This document shows, in pieces, positions 49,735-64,000 of a stretch of 64,000 nt of DNA; the first letter of the stretch is position 1; every line of letters begins with the position of its first letter. Source of the DNA: Nitrospinaceae bacterium (GTDB taxonomy: Bacteria; Nitrospinota; Nitrospinia; Nitrospinales; Nitrospinaceae); contig OZ245011.1 in assembly GCA_965223665.1 (NCBI GenBank), forward strand, positions 1,984,001 to 2,048,000. Direction: 5' to 3'. A program made the position numbers and the translations under genes. The notes under the pieces were generated by a model that was not told the DNA's origin, did not search any database, and saw nothing but the letters and a program-made list of their open reading frames with translations.

Positions 49735-50103
49735 ATGAACAATGATGAATTGATAAATTCCTGGATTCTTTATAACTCCGCCAGGAAGAACTCCATAGAT
49801 AGAGACAAACATTACTGGGCAGAGGAAAGATTGAATGACTTGGTAATGAATGAGCCGCAACAGGCCTTAACAATAATACTAGAATTAATGGAATCTGATC
49901 TCAATGAACATGCATTTTCTTGTCTTGCAGCTGGCCCATTGGAAGATTTATTAGCCGACTGGGGAGACGAAATAATTGATCAAGTGGAAGAACTCGCCAG
50001 GAAAAACCCGAAGTTCAACCAATTACTCCGCGGTGTTTGGCAAAACGCTATGAGTGATGAAGTTTGGGCACGCATTAAAAAAGTCAGTAATAACGTTTGG
50101 TAG
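49735..50103 (+). CDS. DUF6869-like hypothetical protein
   Basis: LAAGPLEDLL...LLRGVW motif. Confidence 0.7.
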   Translation: MNNDELINSWILYNSARKNSIDRDKHYWAEERLNDLVMNEPQQALTIILELMESDLNEHAFSCLAAGPLEDLLADWGDEIIDQVEELARKNPKFNQLLRGVWQNAMSDEVWARIKKVSNNVW

Positions 50104-50195
50104 TTTTTCGATTTGACAATTTATATTTAAATGGAAAGTTATTCGAGGATTTGGTTAAAGAAACATAAACAAGTGTGCATGCGTGAAGGAAATTA

Positions 50196-52406
50196 ATGAA
50201 AAAGAAATTCTTATTTTTAATTGTTTTAGTTTTAACGCTATTTGTAGTTTCCTCAGCAGAAACTAACTCTTCCGACGCTATACGAGTCAAAATGGAATAT
50301 GAGGAGAAAACCGATACGATTCACCTTAAAATTAAAAATACTAGTTTCCAATCGGTAAAAATTTATAATTTGGATTTAAAACCTAAGGACAAGAAAGGAA
50401 TTGCTCCCAGGGGATTCAAAGTAAAATTAAAAGATAAAAACAATAAAATTTTAAGTAATGATAATGGTGCCAAAGATGGACTTATTTCGAGTAGAGATCA
50501 CTGGCATGAAATATATAGAGTGCCAACTGATCCGGTTAAACTTGAGTCGGGCAAAACTATTCAGTTAGATTTTACACTGAAGCATTTAATAAGTTGGAAT
50601 TTCGGTGATTATTCAGAAATTAGATTTTTTAAATTAGTTTATTACATTTATCTCGATGGCTTTTGGGATAGAAAGTTAGAATTTAAATCAAACTGGATAA
50701 CATTTCCGGACAAACTACGGTCAGCATACTCATCCAATCAAAACAAACCTAACCCTAAAGAAAAAACTTTTTTCAAACCTTATAATTTAAAAGATTATGA
50801 AACCATAAAACAACTTTTAAAAGAAGGGGTAGACCCTAATTCACGTTCAGAAAGTGGTTCCCCAGCATTAATCTATGCGGTGGGTGTTAATAATCCAAAA
50901 ATTGTTAATCTTTTGTTGGATCACGGAGCCAACCCAAACATTGTCAATCGGGATGGATACTCTGCATTGCACTATGCTGCTTTAGAGGGCCAACTAGAAA
51001 TAATGAGCTTATTACTGGCTAAAGACGCAGATCCCAATTTAAAAAATAATAGAGGAGAAACAGCTTTATTGCTTGCTGCCAGTGCCGGTCACCTGGAAGC
51101 CATTAAACTTTTAGTCTCTAAAGGTGCAGATTTAAATGTTAGGAATAATACCGATGACAATGCCTTGCATAATGCTTCTGTTCGAAAAAATACAAAGGTC
51201 TTTAAATGGCTATTGGATCAGGGATTAAACTTAGAGGCTAAAACAAAATTAGGTATGACCCCTCTTCATTTGGCTGTGTTCAACGGAAGCGAAGAAATTA
51301 TAGATATATTATTAGAAAAGGGTGTCAAAGTTAACATTCAAAATATTAGGGGAGAAACTCCACTTCACCATGCGTCTTGGGGAATAATAAATATATTCAA
51401 TAAATTGATGGCTCACGGGGCAGATCCCAATATCCGAGACAAGAGAAATGAAAAGCCTATTTCCAATGCAATTGCTTCAGGAAATTTCCAAATCTTCACA
51501 AAGTTATTCACCAAAGAAGATTTAAAAACAAAGGATATTTACGGCAACTCATTACTCCATGTTGCAATTTCATATGGAAAGAGTATTGATATTGTACGGT
51601 TTTTGCTGGAAAGGAATGCCAATCCTAATCTAAAAAATATAATTGGATTGACCCCTCTTCATAATGCAGCTTCAACTGAGAATTTCGAAATTCTAAAGAT
51701 GTTAATGGAAAAGAATGTCGAGGTTAATTCTCAAGATAATGCTGGAGAAACTCCATTAATGAAATCGGTTCAAACAAATAAAATCAACCAAACAAAGTAT
51801 CTTCTGGAAAGAGGCGCAAATCCTAACTTAAAAAATAAAATGGGGGAAACATCCTTATATTGGGCGGCCTATTTCAATCATCTGAATTTGGTTAAATTAT
51901 TGATGGAGAACAATGCAGATCCCGCCATTACTTCAACCCGAGGATTAAATCCTGCATCCTTTGCAATTAAAGAAGGGAATTTAAAAATCTTCAAACTGTT
52001 ATTAAAAAAAGATTCTAATTTAATGGTTCAAACTTTAAATGGAGAAACACTTCTTCACTTTGCAGGAAAAGCGGGCAACCTTGAAATTTTTAAAATTTTG
52101 ATCTCCAAAGGACTGGATAGGAAAGCTATTGACAATCACGGCAACACCACCCTGCATTGGGCCGCTAAAGGAGGCAATCCTGAAATATCAAAATTTTTAC
52201 TGGATCACGGGGTTGATCCAAATACACAAAATCACGCTGGGGACACCGCACTTATTATTGCAACTCAGTATGGGCACACTGATATGGTCAAACAATTATT
52301 AACCCACGGAGCCGACCCCAACATTAAAAACAAAGACGGAGAAACCGCATACAGCTGGGTTGGAAAGAATAAACTTTTAGCAAACTTACTTGAAGAAAAT
52401 GAATAA
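50196..52406 (+). CDS. Exported ankyrin-repeat protein
   Basis: Signal peptide, ~170-aa unique domain, then many GxTPLHxA...LLxxGAxPN repeats. Confidence 0.92.
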   Translation: MKKKFLFLIVLVLTLFVVSSAETNSSDAIRVKMEYEEKTDTIHLKIKNTSFQSVKIYNLDLKPKDKKGIAPRGFKVKLKDKNNKILSNDNGAKDGLISSRDHWHEIYRVPTDPVKLESGKTIQLDFTLKHLISWNFGDYSEIRFFKLVYYIYLDGFWDRKLEFKSNWITFPDKLRSAYSSNQNKPNPKEKTFFKPYNLKDYETIKQLLKEGVDPNSRSESGSPALIYAVGVNNPKIVNLLLDHGANPNIVNRDGYSALHYAALEGQLEIMSLLLAKDADPNLKNNRGETALLLAASAGHLEAIKLLVSKGADLNVRNNTDDNALHNASVRKNTKVFKWLLDQGLNLEAKTKLGMTPLHLAVFNGSEEIIDILLEKGVKVNIQNIRGETPLHHASWGIINIFNKLMAHGADPNIRDKRNEKPISNAIASGNFQIFTKLFTKEDLKTKDIYGNSLLHVAISYGKSIDIVRFLLERNANPNLKNIIGLTPLHNAASTENFEILKMLMEKNVEVNSQDNAGETPLMKSVQTNKINQTKYLLERGANPNLKNKMGETSLYWAAYFNHLNLVKLLMENNADPAITSTRGLNPASFAIKEGNLKIFKLLLKKDSNLMVQTLNGETLLHFAGKAGNLEIFKILISKGLDRKAIDNHGNTTLHWAAKGGNPEISKFLLDHGVDPNTQNHAGDTALIIATQYGHTDMVKQLLTHGADPNIKNKDGETAYSWVGKNKLLANLLEENE

Positions 52407-54422: not shown

Positions 54423-55145
54423 ATGCAAAAAAGTTTCCCTAATCTATTTATCGATCTAAAAATTAGCGACATTTCAAAATCCTCCTTACGATTTATAGGT
54501 CTATTCGTTTTTACTTTTGAATTTTATTTTTTTTATTGGATTTTTAAAAACTATCGTCAGTTTAAACATTACCAAACGCCTCCCATCAATCCCTACAAAG
54601 AACTAGCCCTTCTGATTTTTTTCTCCTTAATTTTGCCGGTGACTTTGGTTTTCATAAGTTTCAAACAAAATACTCTTTTTGCGCAAGGCAACATTAGTTT
54701 TCAAAGAGAAATTATTTTAAACGCTCTCTTCATGGGTGCGCCGGTTTTCTTTTTATTTCTGCAGTTATTATTTTTAGACAGAGTTTTTGAGAGGTATGGG
54801 ATTCACAATATCCACCCGTATAAGACCACGTTTATTTATGCAGTTCTGGATGTTTTTATTCTACTGATGCCCGAACCTCTATATTGGGATCCCTGGGGTC
54901 ACCGATTTTTTTTCCTGGGAATTCTTGTTTTTAGAATTTTAATGGGAACTATTCTCTATAGTGTGGAGATAAAAATTCAAAAGTTTCTGGAAGGAAGGAA
55001 AGAAGGAACCAAAGAAACCCCAAAAGGTTCGATTTTAGAAAATTCCATCCTGATATTTGGGGTTTCTTTTAATTTATGGCACATTGTGTTTGCACCCATT
55101 GAGCCTATTAATTTCAATTCCTGGTTCAATTATTTTTTCCCTTAA
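54423..55145 (+). CDS. Hypothetical polytopic membrane protein
   Basis: About six hydrophobic segments. Confidence 0.65.
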   Translation: MQKSFPNLFIDLKISDISKSSLRFIGLFVFTFEFYFFYWIFKNYRQFKHYQTPPINPYKELALLIFFSLILPVTLVFISFKQNTLFAQGNISFQREIILNALFMGAPVFFLFLQLLFLDRVFERYGIHNIHPYKTTFIYAVLDVFILLMPEPLYWDPWGHRFFFLGILVFRILMGTILYSVEIKIQKFLEGRKEGTKETPKGSILENSILIFGVSFNLWHIVFAPIEPINFNSWFNYFFP

Positions 55146-55170
55146 ACAACGGTTCCTTTTTATACTTGTT

Positions 55171-55626
55171 TTACTGTCCAACGATGTCGGGTTTCATGGG
55201 GCCGAGGATGGCAAGGAGTTCGCCTTTTTCTTTTTCGGGGACATTGTATTTATCCAGCGTTTTCACCAGGTCGTCCACCACGTAACCGAATTCCGCATCG
55301 GTAATTCCCAATCCTGCGTGGGATTCCTTCATTGAGCGGCCTTTGTATTCACAGGGTCCGCCGGATCCGGCGCACACCTGATCGGCCACCAGTGATTTTA
55401 ACTTGGCGATATCGATTTCTTTCAATCGTTGCGCCACTTTGGCGTTGGTGATTCGTTTGTCGCCTCCGACGGTATCGATAAAATCATTCACTACGGCCTG
55501 GATCGCTTTCATGCCGCCCAACCGATCGTAAAGAGACGTCTCTTTTTTCATCGCCGTTTTCGAACAGGCGCCGAACAGAGTGACGATTAATAATAAGCTG
55601 AACAATTTTAAAGAAAATTTCTTCAC
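55171..55626 (-). CDS. Group 1 truncated hemoglobin with a lipoprotein signal
   Basis: Lipobox LFGAC; SLYDRLGG; GGPCEYKGRSMKESHAGLGITDAEF; aaggag RBS. Confidence 0.9.
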   Translation of the reverse strand: MKKFSLKLFSLLLIVTLFGACSKTAMKKETSLYDRLGGMKAIQAVVNDFIDTVGGDKRITNAKVAQRLKEIDIAKLKSLVADQVCAGSGGPCEYKGRSMKESHAGLGITDAEFGYVVDDLVKTLDKYNVPEKEKGELLAILGPMKPDIVGQ

Positions 55627-55847
55627 GGCCTCGCTCCTTTGGAAGGTGTTTAAATTTTTGAGAGAACTCTCTAGATCACAACCCGGGTACCTACAAAATC
55701 CGGAGCAATTATAGCATCAATTTTTTCCCTTCGCCATCTCCTCTACCTCCTGAATTTTCCAAACTATTGTAGATTCGCCCCATAACTTCTGCTCTTGCTT
55801 TTGCCGGTGAGTTCCAGGATACTGGATCCAGTGAATCTTTTTAGATA

Positions 55848-56762
55848 ATGGATTTTTGGCAGATATCGACGATGTCCACTTGGGATAAATACTACCTAGG
55901 GCTTGCAATTATATTATTTTCCATGGCCTTATCCATTTGGGGAATTTTTCGCATTTCTGAAAACTTTTTGCTTCTTACAGCTTTATTAGCCACATTATTA
56001 GGACTGTGGCAATATCCATTTAAATGCCCCAATTGCAAAAAAACCATCAACATCAAGGAATCAAAATTTAGTGGAAAACCTTTTCGCATGAGTAAGAGTG
56101 GCTTAACGTATACGGCGTTTCCCCCAAAAAAATGCTGGAATTGTGATTATAATTTGACTCAATCTCCAAAATCCAAAAATATGCCCAAAGAAAATGACGC
56201 CATAAATAAAAAACTATCTCTTGCAGAAGAGTTTCTTGATGATGAAGATTTCCATTCTGCTTTCAAGATATATAAATCCTTATCAGACCAGGGGTTGAAC
56301 ATTTGCGATACCACACTGGGCTGGATGTATTCCCATGGTAAAGGGGTAGGAACTAATTTAGAGATAGCAAAGCAATATCTTCTCCGACCCGCAGAAGAAG
56401 GTGATAAAGAGGCACAGTTTTATCTGGGGAGAAACTTTATACAAATAAATGATTTGGACCAGGCGATCTTTTGGTTGGAAAAATCAGCCAATTCCGGGTA
56501 CTCTCCGGCCTTATTCAGATTGGGATGCCTTTACGATAAGGATAAGCATCTAAAAAAAGACGATGAAAAAGCCACAGATTATTTTGAACGCGCTGCCAGG
56601 CTGAATCATGTTGGAGGACTCATAAGATATTCCTACAAACTGATTAAGGGGAACCGCGGAATTCTTAAGATACCCAAAGGATTCATTATTTTATTAAAGG
56701 GTATATTTTTGGTATTTTATTTTAGCTCCAAAGACGAGGGAGATGAAAGGCTTCAAACTTAA
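55848..56762 (+). CDS. Sel1-repeat protein with N-terminal TM and CxxC...CxxC region
   Basis: LGWMYSHGKGV, AEEGDKEAQFYLG and SANSGYSPALFRLG repeats. Confidence 0.8.
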   Translation: MDFWQISTMSTWDKYYLGLAIILFSMALSIWGIFRISENFLLLTALLATLLGLWQYPFKCPNCKKTINIKESKFSGKPFRMSKSGLTYTAFPPKKCWNCDYNLTQSPKSKNMPKENDAINKKLSLAEEFLDDEDFHSAFKIYKSLSDQGLNICDTTLGWMYSHGKGVGTNLEIAKQYLLRPAEEGDKEAQFYLGRNFIQINDLDQAIFWLEKSANSGYSPALFRLGCLYDKDKHLKKDDEKATDYFERAARLNHVGGLIRYSYKLIKGNRGILKIPKGFIILLKGIFLVFYFSSKDEGDERLQT

Positions 56763-56839
56763 AAGATTTAAAATCCGGGGTAACCCTCCACTTAGAATTC
56801 CTTATTAAAAAACCGATCCAAAACTTTCTTTAGCTTATC

Positions 56840-57478
56840 TCACTTCACCAACTTGATATGTTCAGTGATGGTCTTCACTCCTTTGGCCTGGCGGATGGTT
56901 TTCAGCACCAGATCTTTTTCCCTTTGGCTATCGGCTTCGCCAATAATATAAATATTGTTCATGACCGATCGATAAAAATAATTGAGGGAAGCAATTCCAC
57001 TGGTGGTGACCAGTTTAGCCTTTATTTTTGTTTCGATCCAGAAATCATTGACCGCCTGCCCGGGACCGCCCTTCTCTTCTTCTTTACCACTTTCGGAATC
57101 TTTTTTCTGCTCGCGTCTTGCCTCTTTCACTTCTTTCGGTACCATTTGTACATGGTCTATGAACTCTTTAATCCGTTTATCCTGCTTAGCGAGTTGGACT
57201 ACCTCCTGATGCACTTTGGCATCGTCCAGCGTTCCGGTAATCATCACCCGTTGCTTCCACACATCGGTACTGATATCGAGCAATAAGCCTTTGTCTTTGT
57301 CGGTCAGGCGGTCTAAAATTCCCGCATGAATTTCTGCATCGGTTTTTTGGTCTGCACCCGACCGATCCTGGATCACCCGCCCTGCAGTTTCCTGAACGAT
57401 AGTGGCACAGCCGGAAAACACGGCAAGCATGAGCCCCATCATTAAAGCCAGAGTGATTCTAAAGAAAAGAGTTTTCAT
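56840..57478 (-). CDS. Dual BON-domain lipoprotein
   Basis: Lipobox FSGC; DAEIHAGILDRL and DFWIETKIKAKL...KGVKTI BON signatures. Confidence 0.85.
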   Translation of the reverse strand: MKTLFFRITLALMMGLMLAVFSGCATIVQETAGRVIQDRSGADQKTDAEIHAGILDRLTDKDKGLLLDISTDVWKQRVMITGTLDDAKVHQEVVQLAKQDKRIKEFIDHVQMVPKEVKEARREQKKDSESGKEEEKGGPGQAVNDFWIETKIKAKLVTTSGIASLNYFYRSVMNNIYIIGEADSQREKDLVLKTIRQAKGVKTITEHIKLVK

Positions 57479-57607
57479 CAGAAAGGTCCTCCCCAAGGTT
57501 TTTTTGTGAAAGGGCAACTATACCATTTTTAGGGTCACTTTTGGCCTAGAAAATCTACGAGGACCATCCAACCCTGTGAGGTTGGATGACCGATAAAAGT
57601 TAATATT

Positions 57608-58522
57608 CTAATCCCTCAAGGCAATCCTCACTTCAGCGTTTTCCACTTTAGCTTTGCTGACAGATTCCAACTCACCCAAGGGAATTTTGGCTTTCGCAAA
57701 CACACGAAGACTCAGTTCCAAATTATAATTTCCCTCGCGCAAGATCAGTCCGGCGTTGGGTCCTTGTATGGTATTTTCCATCGAGGGCGGATTGCCATTC
57801 GCCGGTGTTAAAGTTTGCAGAACTGAATCGGCGGGATGACTTTCCTCTTCGCACAGTTGGTCTAGATATACTTTTACCTGGCCCGGATTATTCGGATCAC
57901 TTTTTAACAAATAGTTCGCGTGGGCAATGGCGCCACTGATCGGTGGAGGTTCGGCCAATGGAAGTTCTTCCGGGATCACAACATTGGCCTGGACATTAAT
58001 TTCCACACAACCTTTGTGAACCATTTCAATTCCTTCCAATTTAATATCCAGTTTAAACGTAAAGGATCCGCTTTGAGTCACCCGCAGGTTGCTGACCACT
58101 TTATTAAAGGATCGACCCACGGCGTAGGGTGAACCCATGGGATCATTCGGTCGTTCTGATTCAGGAAGAGGAGTGGATATCGCTTCCGCGCTCCCAGCCA
58201 GGCGATTAAAAACGGGCCACGCGGAGGAAGCTTTCGTTCCGTTAATTTCCGCTTTTAACTGGGCGGGATCGGGCACCGGACCCGTGGGGTCCCTATGATG
58301 TCCATGCTGATTCGGATCATTCGGGGGAAAATCCGGATACCAGTCCTCCGCATTGGTTGAGTTATTAGAATTGGCATCACCAAAAACATCGATTCTGATT
58401 ATGTTATTTTCAATTTCACCTGTATTCGACCGCACTTCTCCATCCGGGCACTGGTCCTGCCCTAAAAAAACGAAGAAGGAGAAGATGAAAAAAACTATTT
58501 TAAAAAATGAGTTTTTAAACAT
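57608..58522 (-). CDS. Exported hypothetical protein
   Basis: 304-aa ORF with a hydrophobic N-terminus; ggaagga RBS before ATG 58522. Confidence 0.75.
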   Translation of the reverse strand: MFKNSFFKIVFFIFSFFVFLGQDQCPDGEVRSNTGEIENNIIRIDVFGDANSNNSTNAEDWYPDFPPNDPNQHGHHRDPTGPVPDPAQLKAEINGTKASSAWPVFNRLAGSAEAISTPLPESERPNDPMGSPYAVGRSFNKVVSNLRVTQSGSFTFKLDIKLEGIEMVHKGCVEINVQANVVIPEELPLAEPPPISGAIAHANYLLKSDPNNPGQVKVYLDQLCEEESHPADSVLQTLTPANGNPPSMENTIQGPNAGLILREGNYNLELSLRVFAKAKIPLGELESVSKAKVENAEVRIALRD

Positions 58523-58791
58523 ATCCTTCCCTCCTATCAAACATTATTTTTTTGAAAAATAAGTTGAGGGTTTTAAAAGAAACAAAATTTTTATAGGAGT
58601 GCGTTCTAAAAAAGAAGCGGGAGGCGAGAATAGAAAGTGAGATAAATACCAGTATTCAAATTAGGGTGTGTGTGAACGTTGGCACTACTGATAATTAACT
58701 TTGTAATCTATGATTGAGTTATCTATTAAATTATATAATAAGACAACCTGCTGTCAATTCGGGTTTTACCGTTGGTTTTTCTAAGCGAATC

Positions 58792-58831
58792 AAAAAAGGA
58801 GGATCCGCCTTCGGGGGCACTCGAAGGCGGA
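58792..58831 (-). terminator. Probable minus-strand Rho-independent terminator
   Basis: tccgccttcg...cgaaggcgga 10-bp stem followed on the minus strand by tcctcctttttt. Confidence 0.55.
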
Positions 58832-60396
58832 CTTGTTTGGGTAGGTTCCACACATAAAATAGGGGGCTTCCTAATTCCCCTATCTATTTTTCATTTCCTG
58901 ACCTTTCTCGGAAAAGCTGGACCCGCCGAGATTAGGTTCGATATCAAAACCGAAATCACAATCCCGACGCCCCTCGTGGTCCATTCCATCAGGAAACATT
59001 TATACTTAATGATTTCATCGTCGGCCTTTGTCTGAATTTTTATCACACCTATGGAACCGGCCCATTCCACCGGCGGGTCTCAACCCTGAGTTGGAATTTC
59101 GCATAAGTCTTTATAAAGAATCCGGTGAGGCTGCAAGCGCACCTATTTTCCATCACCTCTGATTCTTCCGAACCTATCGAATCAACCCGGAGTATTCTCC
59201 CGCGACACCAAGACTGACCCCCAATCCAATGCCTGAGTTTCTCACGGTGGCGGTACCGGTTGCCGAAGGTGTTATCGTTTCATGTTGCTTCAAATGCCCT
59301 CTCTTAAAATCTCCTTTTGAAACAAACTTCAATACATAATGAGCAAGAACAGATACGGGAACTCGAAGTGCACACGGTCTGTCAGGACAAACCATTGAGA
59401 ACCGGTGAATCTTTTTTAAGTCCTCAACTGCGCGAATAAGGAATCTGCACCGACTCCTCCCCGATCTTTTAAAGATATAATAGCCCTTTCTCCCGAAAGG
59501 AAATATCGTTGTATCTTTATATTTTGTGTCGTGGTTTGAATGACAAGAGAGCAGGGAATTCATGGCCAACACTGATAGTTCCTTTGAAAAGTGGGACACA
59601 GGATAGAATTCATGCCTTAGGTTGGGGTTAGCCCCGGATTTGTATTTTGATTTTATTTTGAAAACATTCAGGCATGAAGCCCACCGTAAAATCTGGTTTT
59701 ACAATATGTTTGAAACTCCTCTTTCATGAGGAAATTTTTAAAGAGCCCGTTTCAACAGTTTTCGACCTCTTGAAAAACCACCCTAAATAGGTTAACCTAA
59801 AATTACCTCGATAGGTGAGTCTTTTTTCATAAGAATGGTTTTAAGTGTTACCGCTTAAAACCATTCTAACCCCCTTACTCTCTAAACCCCTGTAAACAGA
59901 AGCTCCCCTGGATGGAAGCGTGGATTGGGGATTAAATCCAACAAAATAACTTTTCAAATGTCCTAATTGGGGCAACCAAACAACACTTCAAATATTTGGT
60001 TTATTAAATTTATTTCTATTAAACAAAAACTGAGATTATCTTTTTAACCTCAACTTTACCACAAGAATTCATTCCTAAACCCTTTGAATATAGCGGATTT
60101 CCGGAAAAATTTCCATTAAATTCCTGCCCAGGAGCTGAACTCTTATTCAAGAACTACATTTTCTATAGATGAAAAAATTTAGGTAAACCAAAATTTTTTG
60201 TTTGGTGAATAGGGATTCATCTGGAGAACAGCGTCTGAAATTATGTTTTTACCCTCAGCCACAGGAGATCGAATTTTTGAAGTACTCAAGTTTTTTGGAT
60301 TGGTAAATATACTGAACGGAGGTGACGATCTTTATTTCGACTCAGAAAAAGGTACCAAAGAAACTCGGCACGATTGGGAGTTAGAATAATTACGTT

Positions 60397-60915
60397 TCAC
60401 TCTTCCAATTGGCTGAGTCTGTGGTCGACGTCTTTGACCTGGAAGTCCATTCCCAGTTGCTGGTAGATCTTCTTGGCCTTGAGGTAAGCCTGGAGTGCGG
60501 CGGCATTATTTCGTTGCTGTTGAAAGGTGACGGCGATGTTGTTCCAACTGTCGGCCACTTCAATATGGTTCTGTCCCGGAATTTTTTGACCGATCTCTAA
60601 AGCCTTATTAAAATATTTCATGGCCGTATCGTATCGACCCTGAGCGCGCCAGGCTTCGCCGAGGTTATTGAAATCGATCGCTACATAGCGATGGTCTTCT
60701 CCGTAAATTTTAAGGTGGTTGGCCAATGCTTGTTCGAAATACATGACGGCTTTTTTGTGTCGTCCCTGCTTCATCTCCTGTGCGCCCAAAAATTTAAACC
60801 GACTCGCTTCTTCAGCCAGTATCTCCGGTTTGTCCTGCGCAGAGGGAACGCCCGCAAACAACAGCATCCCCAACATCAGCAATCCTAAAAGAACACTATA
60901 TCTTTTAATACTCAT
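60397..60915 (-). CDS. Secreted TPR protein
   Basis: Signal peptide; YGEDHRYVAIDFNNLGEAW TPR units. Confidence 0.88.
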   Translation of the reverse strand: MSIKRYSVLLGLLMLGMLLFAGVPSAQDKPEILAEEASRFKFLGAQEMKQGRHKKAVMYFEQALANHLKIYGEDHRYVAIDFNNLGEAWRAQGRYDTAMKYFNKALEIGQKIPGQNHIEVADSWNNIAVTFQQQRNNAAALQAYLKAKKIYQQLGMDFQVKDVDHRLSQLEE

Positions 60916-61213
60916 CCAAACCCCCCTCCGAATCAGGACTCATTTCCCAAAATGGATTTCCTTATCCACTTATTAGAATCACCGGATTCACACCATTTAA
61001 AATTGAGAAACAGATATTCGGCGTGTCACTCTTAAATCAAATTAGTTTCGGTTTAATAGTTCCTGTAATTTTTTTTATGCCTAAACCATATACCATTTTT
61101 AGATTAAGTCAATGATTTTATTAAGATTCCCTGCGATTGGTGCAGAAACCCCCAGCGTCTCAATCACTTTCAGTGGGTTCCCGATACCGATGTTTTGAGA
61201 GAATCCATCAGTG

Positions 61214-61250
61214 AAAATTAAATCCCGGGCCAATCAAATTATAGCCCGGG
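61214..61250 (-). terminator. Possible terminator after rtcB
   Basis: cccgggc...gcccggg stem followed by atttaatttt on the minus strand. Confidence 0.45.
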
Positions 61251-61315
61251 CTAACGGTCGAATGGATGGATAATTTCCTCCTCTCCCGAAAAACTATTTC
61301 AACGTAAAAACTGTT

Positions 61316-62461
61316 TCACACTCCTTTATAACTTAAAAGGGGATCCAGTTTTCGCACAATTCCAGTCAACCTTTTTTGCGCACGCATGACGGCGTTGATG
61401 TTTTTGTAAGCGGCCGGCGCTTCGTCGCGCAACTGATGGCCCAGGTTGTGATTGAACCACACACCTTCCATTTGTTTATGCAAATGGCGCAGCGTGATTT
61501 TTTTTCTGGCTTCGCCTCGGCTCATCACTCGGCCCGCCCCATGCGAACTGGAATTCAAAGCCTCCGGATGTCCTCGCCCTTCGGTATGAAAACTGGGAGC
61601 GCCCATGGAACCCGGAATGATTCCCGGCTCTCCCTGCTTTGCTGAAAGCGCTCCTTTCCTATGAACCCAAATATTCTTTCCGTAATGCATTTCACTGGAA
61701 ACGTGATTATGATTACAGGAAATGATGGAAGACTCCCACGCCGAAACACCAAACAGATCTTGCATCATGGCTCGGACTTCTTCCATCATGACACTTCGAT
61801 TACTTTCAGCATAAAGACAGGCCCATTCCACATCATTGAAATACGCTTTACCGGTTTCGCTGGTGGATTCGAAAAACTTTAATCCCCATTTACTCTTTAT
61901 CGCTAAAGGCAAATGATGATCATTTATGAGCTGCCCCATACCCCGCGACCCGCTGTGAACCATAACCCAAAGCGCTCCCTGTTCATCCGCTTGAAATTCC
62001 AGGAAGTGATTACCACTTCCCAAAGTTCCCAACTGCGCCCGGCCATTTTTCGACTTCGCCTTTTCCAGTTTTTCATGACTGAGTGTGAATTTTATTAGGT
62101 CATTGGGCAACTGGCCCTGCATCGTCTTTCGCGAATGGCGAATGGTCGGAATCCGCTGAGACAACTCTTCCAGAATTTGCGCCGCGTTTCTTTCATTCAT
62201 AAAATGATGCGCGTCACAATCGAACCCCAGAGCGGTCATTCCGCACCCAATGTCATTACCCACCGCTTGCGGATAGTATTGACCCTCGGTTGCCACCACA
62301 GTTCCGATACAGACTTCCCGGCTCAAATGCACATCCGGCATCACGGCAATGTGGCAGACTCCCGTCGCGTTAGACAACCGATCCAGCGCAAGCTTCACTT
62401 CGGCACTCAAAGGTTCGTCCACCCATTGATGAATTTTCTTACCTGGTCTCAATGAACTCAT
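61316..62461 (-). CDS. rtcB: RtcB-family RNA ligase
   Basis: MPDVH, VGNDIGCGM, GTLGSGNHF, HSGSRG, HNH, HRKGA, SHGAGR and DEAPAAYK motifs. Confidence 0.95.
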   Translation of the reverse strand: MSSLRPGKKIHQWVDEPLSAEVKLALDRLSNATGVCHIAVMPDVHLSREVCIGTVVATEGQYYPQAVGNDIGCGMTALGFDCDAHHFMNERNAAQILEELSQRIPTIRHSRKTMQGQLPNDLIKFTLSHEKLEKAKSKNGRAQLGTLGSGNHFLEFQADEQGALWVMVHSGSRGMGQLINDHHLPLAIKSKWGLKFFESTSETGKAYFNDVEWACLYAESNRSVMMEEVRAMMQDLFGVSAWESSIISCNHNHVSSEMHYGKNIWVHRKGALSAKQGEPGIIPGSMGAPSFHTEGRGHPEALNSSSHGAGRVMSRGEARKKITLRHLHKQMEGVWFNHNLGHQLRDEAPAAYKNINAVMRAQKRLTGIVRKLDPLLSYKGV

Positions 62462-62880
62462 TGCCTCACCTCCTTCGGGTTTAACAACCGAAACGAAAAC
62501 TCAGGCACTCGTTTACGATGAATTGCCTTTGCCGCTTCCGCCCTTAAAAACCCGGACGCTTTTTGAAGAGACTGCAGGGTTTCTACCGGGTTAAAACTTT
62601 CCAAAGCATCTGCGAAAGTGAAAACAATCAATAAATGCGAGCTTTCCGGAACCGGCTCCACGCGATCCACGATCAAGTTGCCTAGAGCCGGATCATTCAA
62701 CTCTCCGGACAAGGTCATGTTTAATGTCAATTGAATTTGCTTGCAAAGCTGATGAGCTTTGCGGTTCGCCCTCCTGTTGGTTTGTTTATTAAAAAATTTT
62801 CGCAGGTTCACGCCATCTTCCGGCCCAATCTCCGCGCACAATGATTCTATATTTTTCTTAGAATGAATTTTTGAATTCAT
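62458..62880 (-). CDS. RbfA-like (ribosome-binding factor A paralog) protein, coupled to rtcB
   Basis: LQKASGFLRAEAAKAIHRKRVPEFSF matches the RbfA GFLR...R..P.L.F signature; extra N-terminal CAEIGPEDG segment; ATGA overlap with rtcB. Confidence 0.8.
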   Translation of the reverse strand: MNSKIHSKKNIESLCAEIGPEDGVNLRKFFNKQTNRRANRKAHQLCKQIQLTLNMTLSGELNDPALGNLIVDRVEPVPESSHLLIVFTFADALESFNPVETLQSLQKASGFLRAEAAKAIHRKRVPEFSFRLLNPKEVRQ

Positions 62881-63033
62881 AAATCCTCATATGCATAGAC
62901 AGCAGCAAGTCCGGGCGCAAGCGCACCACTCCGACCTGCACGCTATCGGTGATTGTTATTAGTTGAATTAAAAATAGAAAGAGTCCGGCCTGTTTCTACC
63001 GGAGAGGCTCGGAAGGAAAAACCTGAACGAGAA

Positions 63034-63093
63034 TCAGTCTCTGGAAGAAAGAGGCGGAACCCAATGAATGAATGCTGTCGCAATAGGTTGCAT
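63034..63093 (-). CDS. Putative 19-aa leader peptide MQPIATAFIHWVPPLSSRD
   Basis: GAGGTG Shine-Dalgarno 4 nt before the ATG; lies between a candidate promoter and hairpins leading into the rbfA-like gene. Confidence 0.6.
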   Translation of the reverse strand: MQPIATAFIHWVPPLSSRD

Positions 63094-63127
63094 GGGTCAC
63101 CTCAAAGAATTTATGAATAATTCAAGC

Positions 63128-63155
63128 ATCATAACATAGCTTTTTGAATTGTAAA
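63128..63155 (-). promoter_or_regulatory. Candidate sigma70 promoter for leader-rbfA-like-rtcB
   Basis: TTTACA-16 nt-TATGAT with an extended TGn before the -10 element. Confidence 0.55.
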
Positions 63156-63420
63156 AATAAAGTTTCGGGTAAACTTTATAAAAAACGGGATATCAATGGA
63201 TTATTTTTCTACTCTCCCATTTTATTGATTTTGCGTTCGAGTTCCTGGACTTTTTGGTGAACCGGTAAGTGCTGTAGATGATTTGTGCTTTGAGGAAAGC
63301 TTTTAGCCCCACTGAAAACGACTCAATATTGCTTTCGGTTTCTAACATAAGCTATATTATCAAATTTAACAACAGTTGTTAACACCTGTCTTACTCACTT
63401 GCTTAAAACCTTAACCAGAA

Positions 63421-63801
63421 TCATTCACTATTTTTCTCAAGCCAGAGGGCAAACTCTTCTTCTTTGATTTTACCGGCCGCAAGGTCAAGTACCGCTTGGA
63501 CGGCCTCGGCTTCTGAGGGATTGAAGGATTTCCCGTTTCTTTCGAGAAAGATCGTGCCGAGGACAAACCCGACCCGTTTGTTTCCATCTATAAAAGGATG
63601 ATTACGAATGATAGCGGAAACATAAGCCGCCGCCAAAGAGAAAAGATCAGGTTTGCTATAAGAATAATGCTGTCGAGGACGAACAAGAGCGGCATCCAAA
63701 AGCCCTTCATCTCTTAAACCCGGGGCACCACCAAACTCTGAAATCAGTTCATCATGTATGGCGAGAACTACTGATTTCACAATCCAAACCGGTTCCTTCA
63801 T
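63421..63801 (-). CDS. doc: Death-on-curing (Doc/Fic) toxin
   Basis: GGAPGLRDEGLL and NHPFIDGNKR motifs. Confidence 0.93.
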   Translation of the reverse strand: MKEPVWIVKSVVLAIHDELISEFGGAPGLRDEGLLDAALVRPRQHYSYSKPDLFSLAAAYVSAIIRNHPFIDGNKRVGFVLGTIFLERNGKSFNPSEAEAVQAVLDLAAGKIKEEEFALWLEKNSE

Positions 63802-64000
63802 TTAGCGAGTTCCCGCAGCGTATTGCGGAAGCGGGACATGGCTTTTTTGCCAAGGGCCATTTGTTTTTCAAATTCAGGATCGTAAGGTGTGATGCGGTAA
63901 CTTCCGTCCGGGGCTTCTGTCAGGTACACTTTGTCGCCGTCTTTGAGATGCATACGATTTAGAATTTCGCGAGGCAGAATAACACCAGAAGCGTTTCCGA
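63798..64000 (-). CDS. AbrB/MazE-type antitoxin, 5'-truncated by the window end
   Basis: Minus strand reads GNASGVILPREILNRMHLKDGDKVYL...ITPYDPEFEKQM...RNTLRELAK; stop overlaps the doc ATG. Not in the ORF track. Confidence 0.9.
   Translation of the reverse strand, partial: GNASGVILPREILNRMHLKDGDKVYLTEAPDGSYRITPYDPEFEKQMALGKKAMSRFRNTLRELAK

Follow-up and report, generated by a model that had tools for sequence, protein, structure and literature searches.

Conserved pairing of an RbfA-like protein with an RtcB ligase suggests an undescribed system of RNA repair that may serve the ribosome

Two adjacent genes in a 64,000-nucleotide window of the genome of a Nitrospinaceae bacterium (the window being the whole stretch of DNA analysed; assembly GCA_965223665.1, contig OZ245011.1, forward-strand positions 1,984,001 to 2,048,000; genome completeness 98.6%) encode an RbfA-like protein of 140 amino acids (62458..62880, minus strand) and, downstream of it, an RtcB-family 3'-phosphate/5'-OH RNA ligase of 381 amino acids (61316..62461, minus strand). 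Comparison with homologous sequences indicates that the pair is a genuine, conserved and horizontally mobile two-gene module, which has a private RtcB clade and is additional to the canonical RbfA. The pairing points to an undescribed system for the repair of RNA, possibly of the ribosome. It is very likely that the two proteins work together in RNA repair. The full statement, in which an RbfA-like adaptor and its RtcB would form a dedicated RNA-repair module with a ribosomal target, leans on homology and analogy and is given a probability of about 0.4.

The two genes share four bases, ATGA, between the stop codon of the first and the start codon of the second (62458..62461, minus strand, from the coordinates of the open reading frames (ORFs)), and from this layout they are considered to be translationally coupled. 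The RbfA-like protein is composed of an RbfA type-II KH core (residues ~41-132) and a family-specific N-terminal extension (residues 1-40; 62761..62880, minus strand), which is not present in canonical RbfA. Conserved within the extension is the motif LCAEIGPEDG (residues 14-23; 62812-62841, minus strand), of which CAEIGPEDG makes up residues 15-23. The ligase matches Pfam RtcB (PF01139) at 298 bits, and its motifs GNDIGCG, GSGNHFLE, VMVHSGSRG, NHNH and SSSHGAGR align to the solved RtcBs of P. horikoshii and T. thermophilus. Among 47 aligned RtcBs, D70, H152, H169, H251 and H307 are invariant and C73 is at least 90% conserved; we take the Asp, Cys and His positions to be metal ligands and a His to be the nucleophile. 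RtcB enzymes join 2',3'-cyclic-phosphate or 3'-phosphate ends to 5'-OH ends, and the window RtcB is, to judge from its motifs, catalytically complete. A sequence-only reading of the window had described an RbfA-like gene with a CAEIGPEDG segment, ATGA-coupled to a catalytically complete rtcB, and the ORF coordinates, Pfam matches and motif alignment bear this description out.

Conservation and distribution of the pair

Homologue searches among close relatives gave two proteins and one locus, and a full-library phmmer search was needed to reach the wider family. At E ≤ 1e-10 this returned 457 cluster representatives, a number that rises to 1398 at E ≤ 1e-3; the best 150 matches are mostly about 140 amino acids long and mostly aligned from near residue 1. 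With a 12-sequence alignment of the family, 80 metagenome loci were retrieved, which collapse at 90% identity to 71 non-redundant clusters, and their RtcB neighbours were located by tblastn with the window RtcB as the query. RtcB was found directly downstream on the same strand at 23 of the loci and directly upstream at six; it was undetected at 51, many of which are short contigs. Counted by cluster, RtcB is downstream in 21 and upstream in six (27 adjacent), while 25 clusters without RtcB could be assessed on both sides and 19 only in part. The four-base overlap is kept at 19 of the 23 loci with RtcB downstream (18 ATGA, one TTGA), where the RbfA-like proteins are only 35-49% identical to that of the window. 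The six loci with RtcB upstream form one well-supported clade of the RbfA-like tree (support 97), and they carry another RtcB type, with 34-37% identity over the full length and a different NCBIfam score profile. The existence of two RtcB types with opposite gene orders suggests that RtcB was recruited at least twice.

The private nature of the ligase clade emerges from a sample of 401 genomes of one phylum, the third phylum sampled, which is probably Planctomycetota as judged from its PSD-domain content and the source names of the closest homologues. The family is present in 36 of these genomes, with 37 genes, and RtcB stands beside 21 of the 37 (directly adjacent to 20, about 1 kb from one). 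An RtcB profile search of the same sample, in which four candidates were scored per genome, gave 19 matches of 440-606 bits, every one of them directly adjacent to a family gene. The next RtcBs score 405 bits or less and belong mostly to genomes without the family, 405 bits being the best score in such a genome. In this sample, the clade of the window RtcB is found only as a partner of the RbfA-like protein. All 36 carrier genomes have some RtcB-family gene. The pairwise distances of the RbfA-like proteins and of the RtcBs, compared over 14 operons, are correlated (Mantel r 0.76, a value that none of 2000 permutations reached). Adjacency of the two genes by chance was considered and is ruled out by the kept overlap and by the 19-of-19 adjacency of the clade.

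It could be argued that the two genes are merely co-regulated, the RbfA-like protein being a stress-specific factor for the maturation or silencing of 30S subunits and RtcB a general repair ligase that acts on different molecules. Canonical RbfA is reported to keep immature 30S subunits from translation (PMC7145577, in the accessible part of the article), and both the leader and small upstream ORFs also precede family genes that lack RtcB. However, members of the RtcB clade occur in none of the 365 genomes without the family and always beside an RbfA-like gene, RtcB of a second type was acquired with the gene order reversed, and the four-base overlap is conserved. Clade exclusivity, second recruitment and overlap are patterns typical of the subunits of one machine, which makes co-regulation alone quite unlikely.

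Elsewhere the family is scarce. Of 120 genomes of the window's own phylum, two carry the paralog, both of one genus, and a set of 94 genomes from another phylum had none. When 401 genomes were sampled across the domain, no further high-scoring match emerged; the other eight matches of that sample reach 52 bits at most and mostly cover the RbfA core only, and one that was inspected is a canonical rbfA between infB and truB. A plasmid search with the family returned canonical rbfA-like matches only, and PADLOC had no match for either the RbfA-like protein or RtcB. No paper that connects RbfA with RtcB came up in a full-text literature search; the pairing could already be shown in the main survey of gene neighbourhoods for RNA repair (Burroughs and Aravind 2016, NAR 44:8525) or in the RtcB similarity network in the supplementary information of PMC9304027.

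The window genome also holds a canonical rbfA and a second rtcB. At a distance of 1.9 Mb there is the canonical rbfA (119.9 bits), with the gene order infB, an unscanned ORF of 100 amino acids, rbfA, truB and rpsO (genes named from their translations), whereas the RbfA-like gene lies outside the infB-rbfA-truB operon, between TPR-repeat genes. A second RtcB (435 bits), to which the window RtcB is 41% identical, sits beside RtcA at C1:1716014-1718765, the sole RtcA found in the genome occupying C1:1716014-1716961. Since a canonical rbfA and a second rtcB are present elsewhere, the window pair is an extra system and not a set of housekeeping copies. The sequence-only reading had taken the RbfA-like gene for a paralog, and had named as counter-evidence that it might be the only rbfA or that its pairing with RtcB might not be conserved. 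The outcome favours the reading on both counts: the canonical gene is present in its infB-rbfA-truB operon, and canonical RbfA (70-107 bits) is found elsewhere in all 36 family-bearing genomes of the phylum sample, while the pairing is conserved, translationally coupled and clade-specific in the metagenome loci and in the 401 genomes of that sample.

A housekeeping role in rRNA maturation, with ligation as a step of 16S processing, is highly improbable. RbfA takes part in 16S maturation, archaea employ RtcB-type ligation for circular pre-rRNA, and Planctomycetota, the inferred phylum in which the module is commonest, have an unusual rRNA gene organisation. Nevertheless, a core maturation step would not be so patchy as this family is (36/401 and 2/120 genomes, with no other high-scoring match in the domain-wide sample), and a canonical RbfA is kept by all carriers.

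The RbfA-like family and its RNA site

The RbfA-like protein matches Pfam RBFA (PF02033) with 42.4 bits over residues 43-131 of its 140, the gathering cut-off being 34.7 bits. Common to 50 aligned family members are the N-terminal consensus LCAExGPxDGxDPR and a second stretch, RKxxQLCxQV. Across these sequences, R113, R122 and P126 do not vary; C15, D22 and G23 reach at least 90% conservation, and C46, a residue of helix 1, is nearly invariant as well. The N-terminal motif is kept in both the RtcB-linked and the RtcB-less subsets of the family. A model built by AlphaFold2 (AF2) with the family alignment as input has a mean predicted local distance difference test (pLDDT) score of 82.1, with the core above 90 and residues 1-40 at only 51-66. 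Its secondary structure (helices 35-59 and 98-120, strands 69-76, 82-89 and 127-132) corresponds to the type-II KH fold of a helix, two strands, a helix-kink-helix and a strand. When the model was compared with the PDB by Foldseek, the top eight matches were all bacterial RbfA, with target-normalised template modelling (TM) scores of 0.57-0.80, and the five best of them superpose at 1.9-2.8 Å over 89-96 columns. The family profile matches RbfA chains only, and these matches begin at profile position 41-45, which suggests that the first ~40 residues are an addition. In a tree, a very long branch separates the RbfA-like family from the canonical RbfA of the genome. By these comparisons the RbfA-like proteins constitute a distinct family.

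The known RNA contacts of canonical RbfA allow the binding site to be inspected. According to the accessible part of a cryo-EM preprint (bioRxiv 10.1101/2020.10.19.334821), the KH domain of canonical RbfA holds 16S nucleotides G1530-A1536 in the mRNA exit channel, where it touches A1531-C1533 through its AxG motif and Phe78 forms a stack with A1534/C1535. Residues were compared between 126 rows of the RbfA-like family, some of which overlap between the two source sets, and 37 canonical RbfAs. The window protein has the AxG motif as A108-S-G110; in the family G110 is found in 102 of the 126 rows and A108 in 67. R113 and P126, invariant in the family, are near-invariant in the canonical proteins (35 of 37 have R and all 37 have P). 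The window protein is also one of the eight rows that keep the equivalent of Phe78, as F111. It appears from these residues that the RbfA scaffold and part of the RNA site are kept and that the pocket is remodelled, a result that would neither prove nor exclude binding to the 30S subunit.

Family genes that have no RtcB beside them have mostly unrelated neighbours. At loci L048-L050, L052, L053, L085/L086 and L095/L113, the exceptions include an NYN nuclease, Cys-tRNA synthetase, EF-Tu, two RlaP nucleotidyltransferases accompanied by a methyltransferase, and, at two independent loci, RtcA. The conserved fold and AxG motif, taken together with the location of these RtcB-less members near RNA-repair genes, support a link of the family to RNA or the ribosome.

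Several further features of the family loci were observed. Seven genomes, namely G540, G559, G576, G592, G607 and G621 of a single family (f289) plus G859, have an RbfA-like match that begins near model position 27-35, with no RtcB adjacent to it. Most of these late-starting matches, with the exception of that in G621, contain an in-frame stop and may be N-terminally truncated or decaying copies. The module is flanked by tRNA genes at L055 (4521-4593) and at L059 (317-1241 and 4473-4545); at one tRNA-flanked locus, five tRNA genes lie upstream and one just after RtcB, an arrangement that could reflect an integration hotspot or a functional link.

The leader and the surroundings of the operon

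The operon is preceded by a structured 5' leader of 247 nucleotides (62881..63127, minus strand). Upstream of it lies a sigma-70-like promoter, TTTACA-16-TATGAT with TG (63128..63155, minus strand), with 10 of 12 consensus matches; the match is to the consensus only, and the region holds no more such sites in total than shuffled sequences do. The leader contains a Shine-Dalgarno (SD) sequence, GAGGTG, with a 19-codon upstream ORF that translates as MQPIATAFIHWVPPLSSRD (63034..63103, minus strand; ORF 63093-63034), and a terminator-like hairpin followed by a T-run (62984..63003, minus strand). A long-range helix is predicted, in which ~63118-63106 would pair with the ribosome-binding site and the ATG of the RbfA-like gene. 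The minimum free energy of the leader is -78.9 kcal/mol (z -3.94 versus shuffles).

Identity to the sister species (L006, also Nitrospinaceae) is 96.8% in the leader, 92.3-92.4% in the two coding regions and 88% and 79% in the flanks. By nhmmer, the leader was also found upstream of the homologue at L037 (E 1.6e-8), the protein of which is only 49% identical. The frame of the upstream ORF is open in both the sister species and L037 (MLPIVTKILQKVPTSY). L037 keeps the small ORF, the hairpin and a 3' stem, and eight pairs show two-sided compensatory changes, although the comparison amounts effectively to two independent sequences. The hairpin stem in L037 shows G-C to G-U changes, and there are two compensatory changes in the stem extension. 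An iterated nucleotide profile of the leader reaches only L099 and L071, and no Rfam family matches the leader. Across the family, short ORFs preceded by an SD sequence were found 90-260 nucleotides upstream of 25 of 39 RtcB-linked and 23 of 47 RtcB-less genes, with 17 of 39 and 6 of 47 in the antisense control. By these measures, the leader seems really conserved in the lineage of the window, and the family-wide evidence for a small ORF is equivocal. The conserved leader may represent a new regulatory RNA, a candidate for the control of stress-induced RNA repair.

Leader-peptide attenuators and leaders that mask a start codon are known from the erm and cat resistance genes. The window operon has the same elements in front of it, namely a promoter, an SD sequence with a short ORF, a terminator-like hairpin and a helix over the start region of the first gene. 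The likeness lies in the parts only, as no sequence or Rfam relation between such leaders and that of the window was found.

The cassette and ~400 nucleotides on each side (60950-63306) are ~90% identical in the sister species. Close by in the window, an AbrB/MazE-type antitoxin and a Doc (Fic/Doc) toxin are encoded on the minus strand (63421-64000; L117 1-1230), within a stretch of ~920 nucleotides that is absent from the sister species, where a TPR gene directly follows the cassette in place of the Doc pair. The AbrB/MazE-Doc pair is therefore an insertion in the window genome. Genes with TPR_12/TPR_10 repeats lie on both sides of the cassette (window 60397-60915 and L117 1238-7047), and the downstream TPR protein (172 amino acids) has a hydrophobic N-terminus resembling a signal peptide. 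A TPR gene is mentioned in the accessible part of PMC6514570 as an occasional accessory of PrfH-RtcB operons; those around the window cassette look like a local paralog family.

A scan of window positions 55000-64000 for Rfam families and tRNAs detected no tRNA or known small-RNA gene. A sub-threshold match to the Rfam L21 leader (59766-59832, plus strand; 26.6 versus 36 bits, E 0.04) has no ribosomal protein gene near it and is probably due to chance. Further away, 49735-52406 encodes a DUF6869 protein and then a protein of 736 amino acids that consists almost wholly of ankyrin repeats.

Proposed function and comparison with known systems

In the preferred reading, the RbfA-like protein would be the substrate-recognition or adaptor subunit of the RtcB ligase. 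It keeps the RNA-binding KH core of RbfA, which in the canonical protein clamps the 3' end of 16S rRNA in the mRNA exit channel near h28, h44 and h45. Once a small subunit has been cut by an endonuclease near the decoding centre or the 3' minor domain, the adaptor would bind it, or bind its 3'-terminal 16S fragment, and would keep the broken pieces together and out of translation. It would then present the ends to its cognate RtcB, perhaps by means of the N-terminal extension, which is disordered on its own in the model. The operon would probably be switched on via its leader, with the small ORF, the terminator-like hairpin and the start-masking helix sensing the state of translation. We infer the physical interaction, the 30S or 16S target and the logic of the leader from homology and analogy, from which a ribosomal target would be the most economical reading. 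The sequence-only reading had proposed that an RbfA paralog holds or marks nicked 30S subunits for religation, and it is supported in part: the retained fold and AxG motif speak for this mechanism, and the rarity of the stacking Phe in the family speaks against it. A more far-reaching version would make the module a second, independently evolved ribosome-repair system, in which the remodelled paralog sits in the mRNA exit channel of the damaged 30S and holds the severed 16S 3' fragment, the extension recruits the private RtcB and the leader senses failing translation, so that ribosome damage is both signal and substrate; this version is doubtful.

A number of observations weigh against a dedicated module with a ribosomal target. 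The correlated distances of the two proteins fit inheritance as a unit, but plain vertical co-inheritance would give the same result. RtcB is missing beside about half of the family genes (25 of the 52 metagenome clusters that could be assessed in full, and 16 of the 37 genes in the phylum sample), which implies that the adaptor can be encoded, or can function, separately from the ligase. No ribotoxin gene was seen next to the module, the neighbouring Doc pair being an insertion, and the similarity of the upstream-ORF peptides across the family is not above that of composition-matched shuffles. With 35.3 bits, the RbfA-like protein does not reach the TIGR00082 rbfA equivalog cut-off of 51.15, and it stays far under the cut-off of every remaining rbfA model (NCBIfam/PRK). 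At the position of Phe78, the canonical RbfAs have F in 33 of 37 and Y in 4 of 37, whereas only 8 of the 126 family rows have F there, R, K, L or H being the usual residues, and a family-invariant arginine, R122, takes the place of a canonical leucine. The loss of Phe and the new invariant Arg suggest a remodelled RNA pocket, which may bind a different RNA or bind 16S in a different mode. Lastly, the database protein P0194 (519 amino acids) combines an RbfA-like N-terminus and an RtcB of the same clade in a single chain, yet it lends no weight as a true fusion: its last RbfA strand is replaced by out-of-frame residues, probably through a one-base indel or frameshift artefact of the assembly. 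Longer fused forms of the RbfA-like protein were also sought by a word-based search, without success, which is weak evidence.

The altered pocket would also suit the same module with a non-ribosomal target, whereby another single-stranded RNA (tRNA anticodon-loop halves, mRNA or a small RNA) is handed to RtcB. Most of the family has lost the Phe that stacks on 16S, invariant arginines are new, RtcB-less members are located beside RlaP, RtcA and NYN genes, and tRNA genes flank the module at L055 and L059. RlaP was named for its linkage to RNA ligases and is proposed to act on damaged tRNAs, as stated in the accessible text of PMC6514570, and E. coli RtcB1 repairs tRNAs rather than 30S subunits, according to the part of PMC9304027 that is accessible. 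However, the nearest structural and sequence relatives are all ribosome-bound RbfAs, the window protein retains F111, and window positions 55000-64000 are without a tRNA or known small-RNA gene. A non-ribosomal target is considered rather unlikely.

Another proposal concerns the N-terminal extension. The RbfA-like protein could, through this Cys-containing segment, be a cofactor or regulator of RtcB, either as an archease-like activator of guanylylation or turnover, as a guard against oxidation of the metal site, or as an inhibitor. No archease was found in the genome, C15 and C46 are near-invariant and accompanied by an acidic motif, the extension is disordered alone, and the ATGA overlap implies stoichiometric co-translation. 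Such a role is nevertheless unlikely: the RNA-binding AxG motif and the basic helix are kept in the family, roughly half of the members have no RtcB beside them, and the N-terminal motif is equally conserved in those members.

To our knowledge, PrfH-RtcB2 is the only dedicated ribosome-repair module that has been characterised, and it showed that lethal ribotoxin damage to 16S rRNA is reversible. A second module on another ribosome-binding scaffold, if true, would show the combination of a factor paralog and a private RtcB to be a general design, besides providing a handle on the roles of most of the many uncharacterised bacterial RtcB paralogs and a natural tool that recognises damaged small subunits. 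Even with a non-ribosomal target, the strict coupling at the level of the clade would define a new specificity subunit of RtcB. Features of the RbfA-like protein that lend themselves to direct tests are its N-terminal motif, its pair of cysteines and its remodelled KH pocket.

With canonical RbfA (PF02033/TIGR00082; structures on the 30S subunit 7AFL and 7AFQ), the family shares its fold, its AxG motif and a conserved Arg and Pro located in the last helix and strand, and F111 of the window protein corresponds to Phe78. The family differs in its additional N-terminal Cys/Asp/Gly extension of ~40 residues, its short C-terminus, a new RKR motif and the unconserved Phe; its score lies under the equivalog cut-off, and its gene is found outside infB-rbfA-truB and always alongside a canonical copy. 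Archease and RtcB likewise form a combination of a small partner and a ligase, but the folds are unrelated, and a search of the window genome gave no match to archease. The same ligase chemistry is expected for the rtcBA system (E. coli RtcB1, RtcR/sigma-54), of which the window genome has its own rtcB-rtcA elsewhere. The window operon differs from it in having no adjacent rtcA (rtcR was not searched for), another RtcB clade, and a sigma-70-like promoter with a structured leader. As the sequence-only reading had stated, there is no rtcA, archease or prfH next to the pair: RtcA sits elsewhere, and archease and PrfH are unmatched genome-wide, no PrfH having been found above the cut-off; rtcR was outside this search.

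The closest parallel is PrfH-RtcB2 of E. coli ATCC 25922, which the accessible parts of PMC9304027 and PMC9223846 describe as likewise a two-gene operon of a diverged ribosome-factor paralog and its own RtcB clade. RtcB2 repairs colicin-E3-type cleavage of the 16S decoding centre on free 30S subunits only, and PrfH makes the subunit available (PMC9304027, accessible part); the RbfA-like/RtcB pair, known here from its genes alone, is likened to this system by its gene architecture. The partner of the window RtcB has a type-II KH fold instead of a release-factor fold, and no peptidyl-tRNA hydrolysis is expected of it. The window RtcB falls under the release_rtcB (TIGR03073) cut-off (153.5 versus 271.8), in a genome with no PrfH above cut-off, and also under that of PRK09588 (196.2 versus 407), which three other scanned RtcBs of the same clade likewise fail to reach. 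By these criteria of family and clade, the module belongs neither to the PrfH-RtcB2 family nor to the rtcBA system. The sequence-only reading had proposed a system analogous to but distinct from PrfH-RtcB2, and this is what the comparison suggests: the membership of the family is not shared, whereas the architecture is, with a two-gene operon, a clade-specific RtcB and a sporadic distribution, both systems being horizontally spread and separate from rtcBA.

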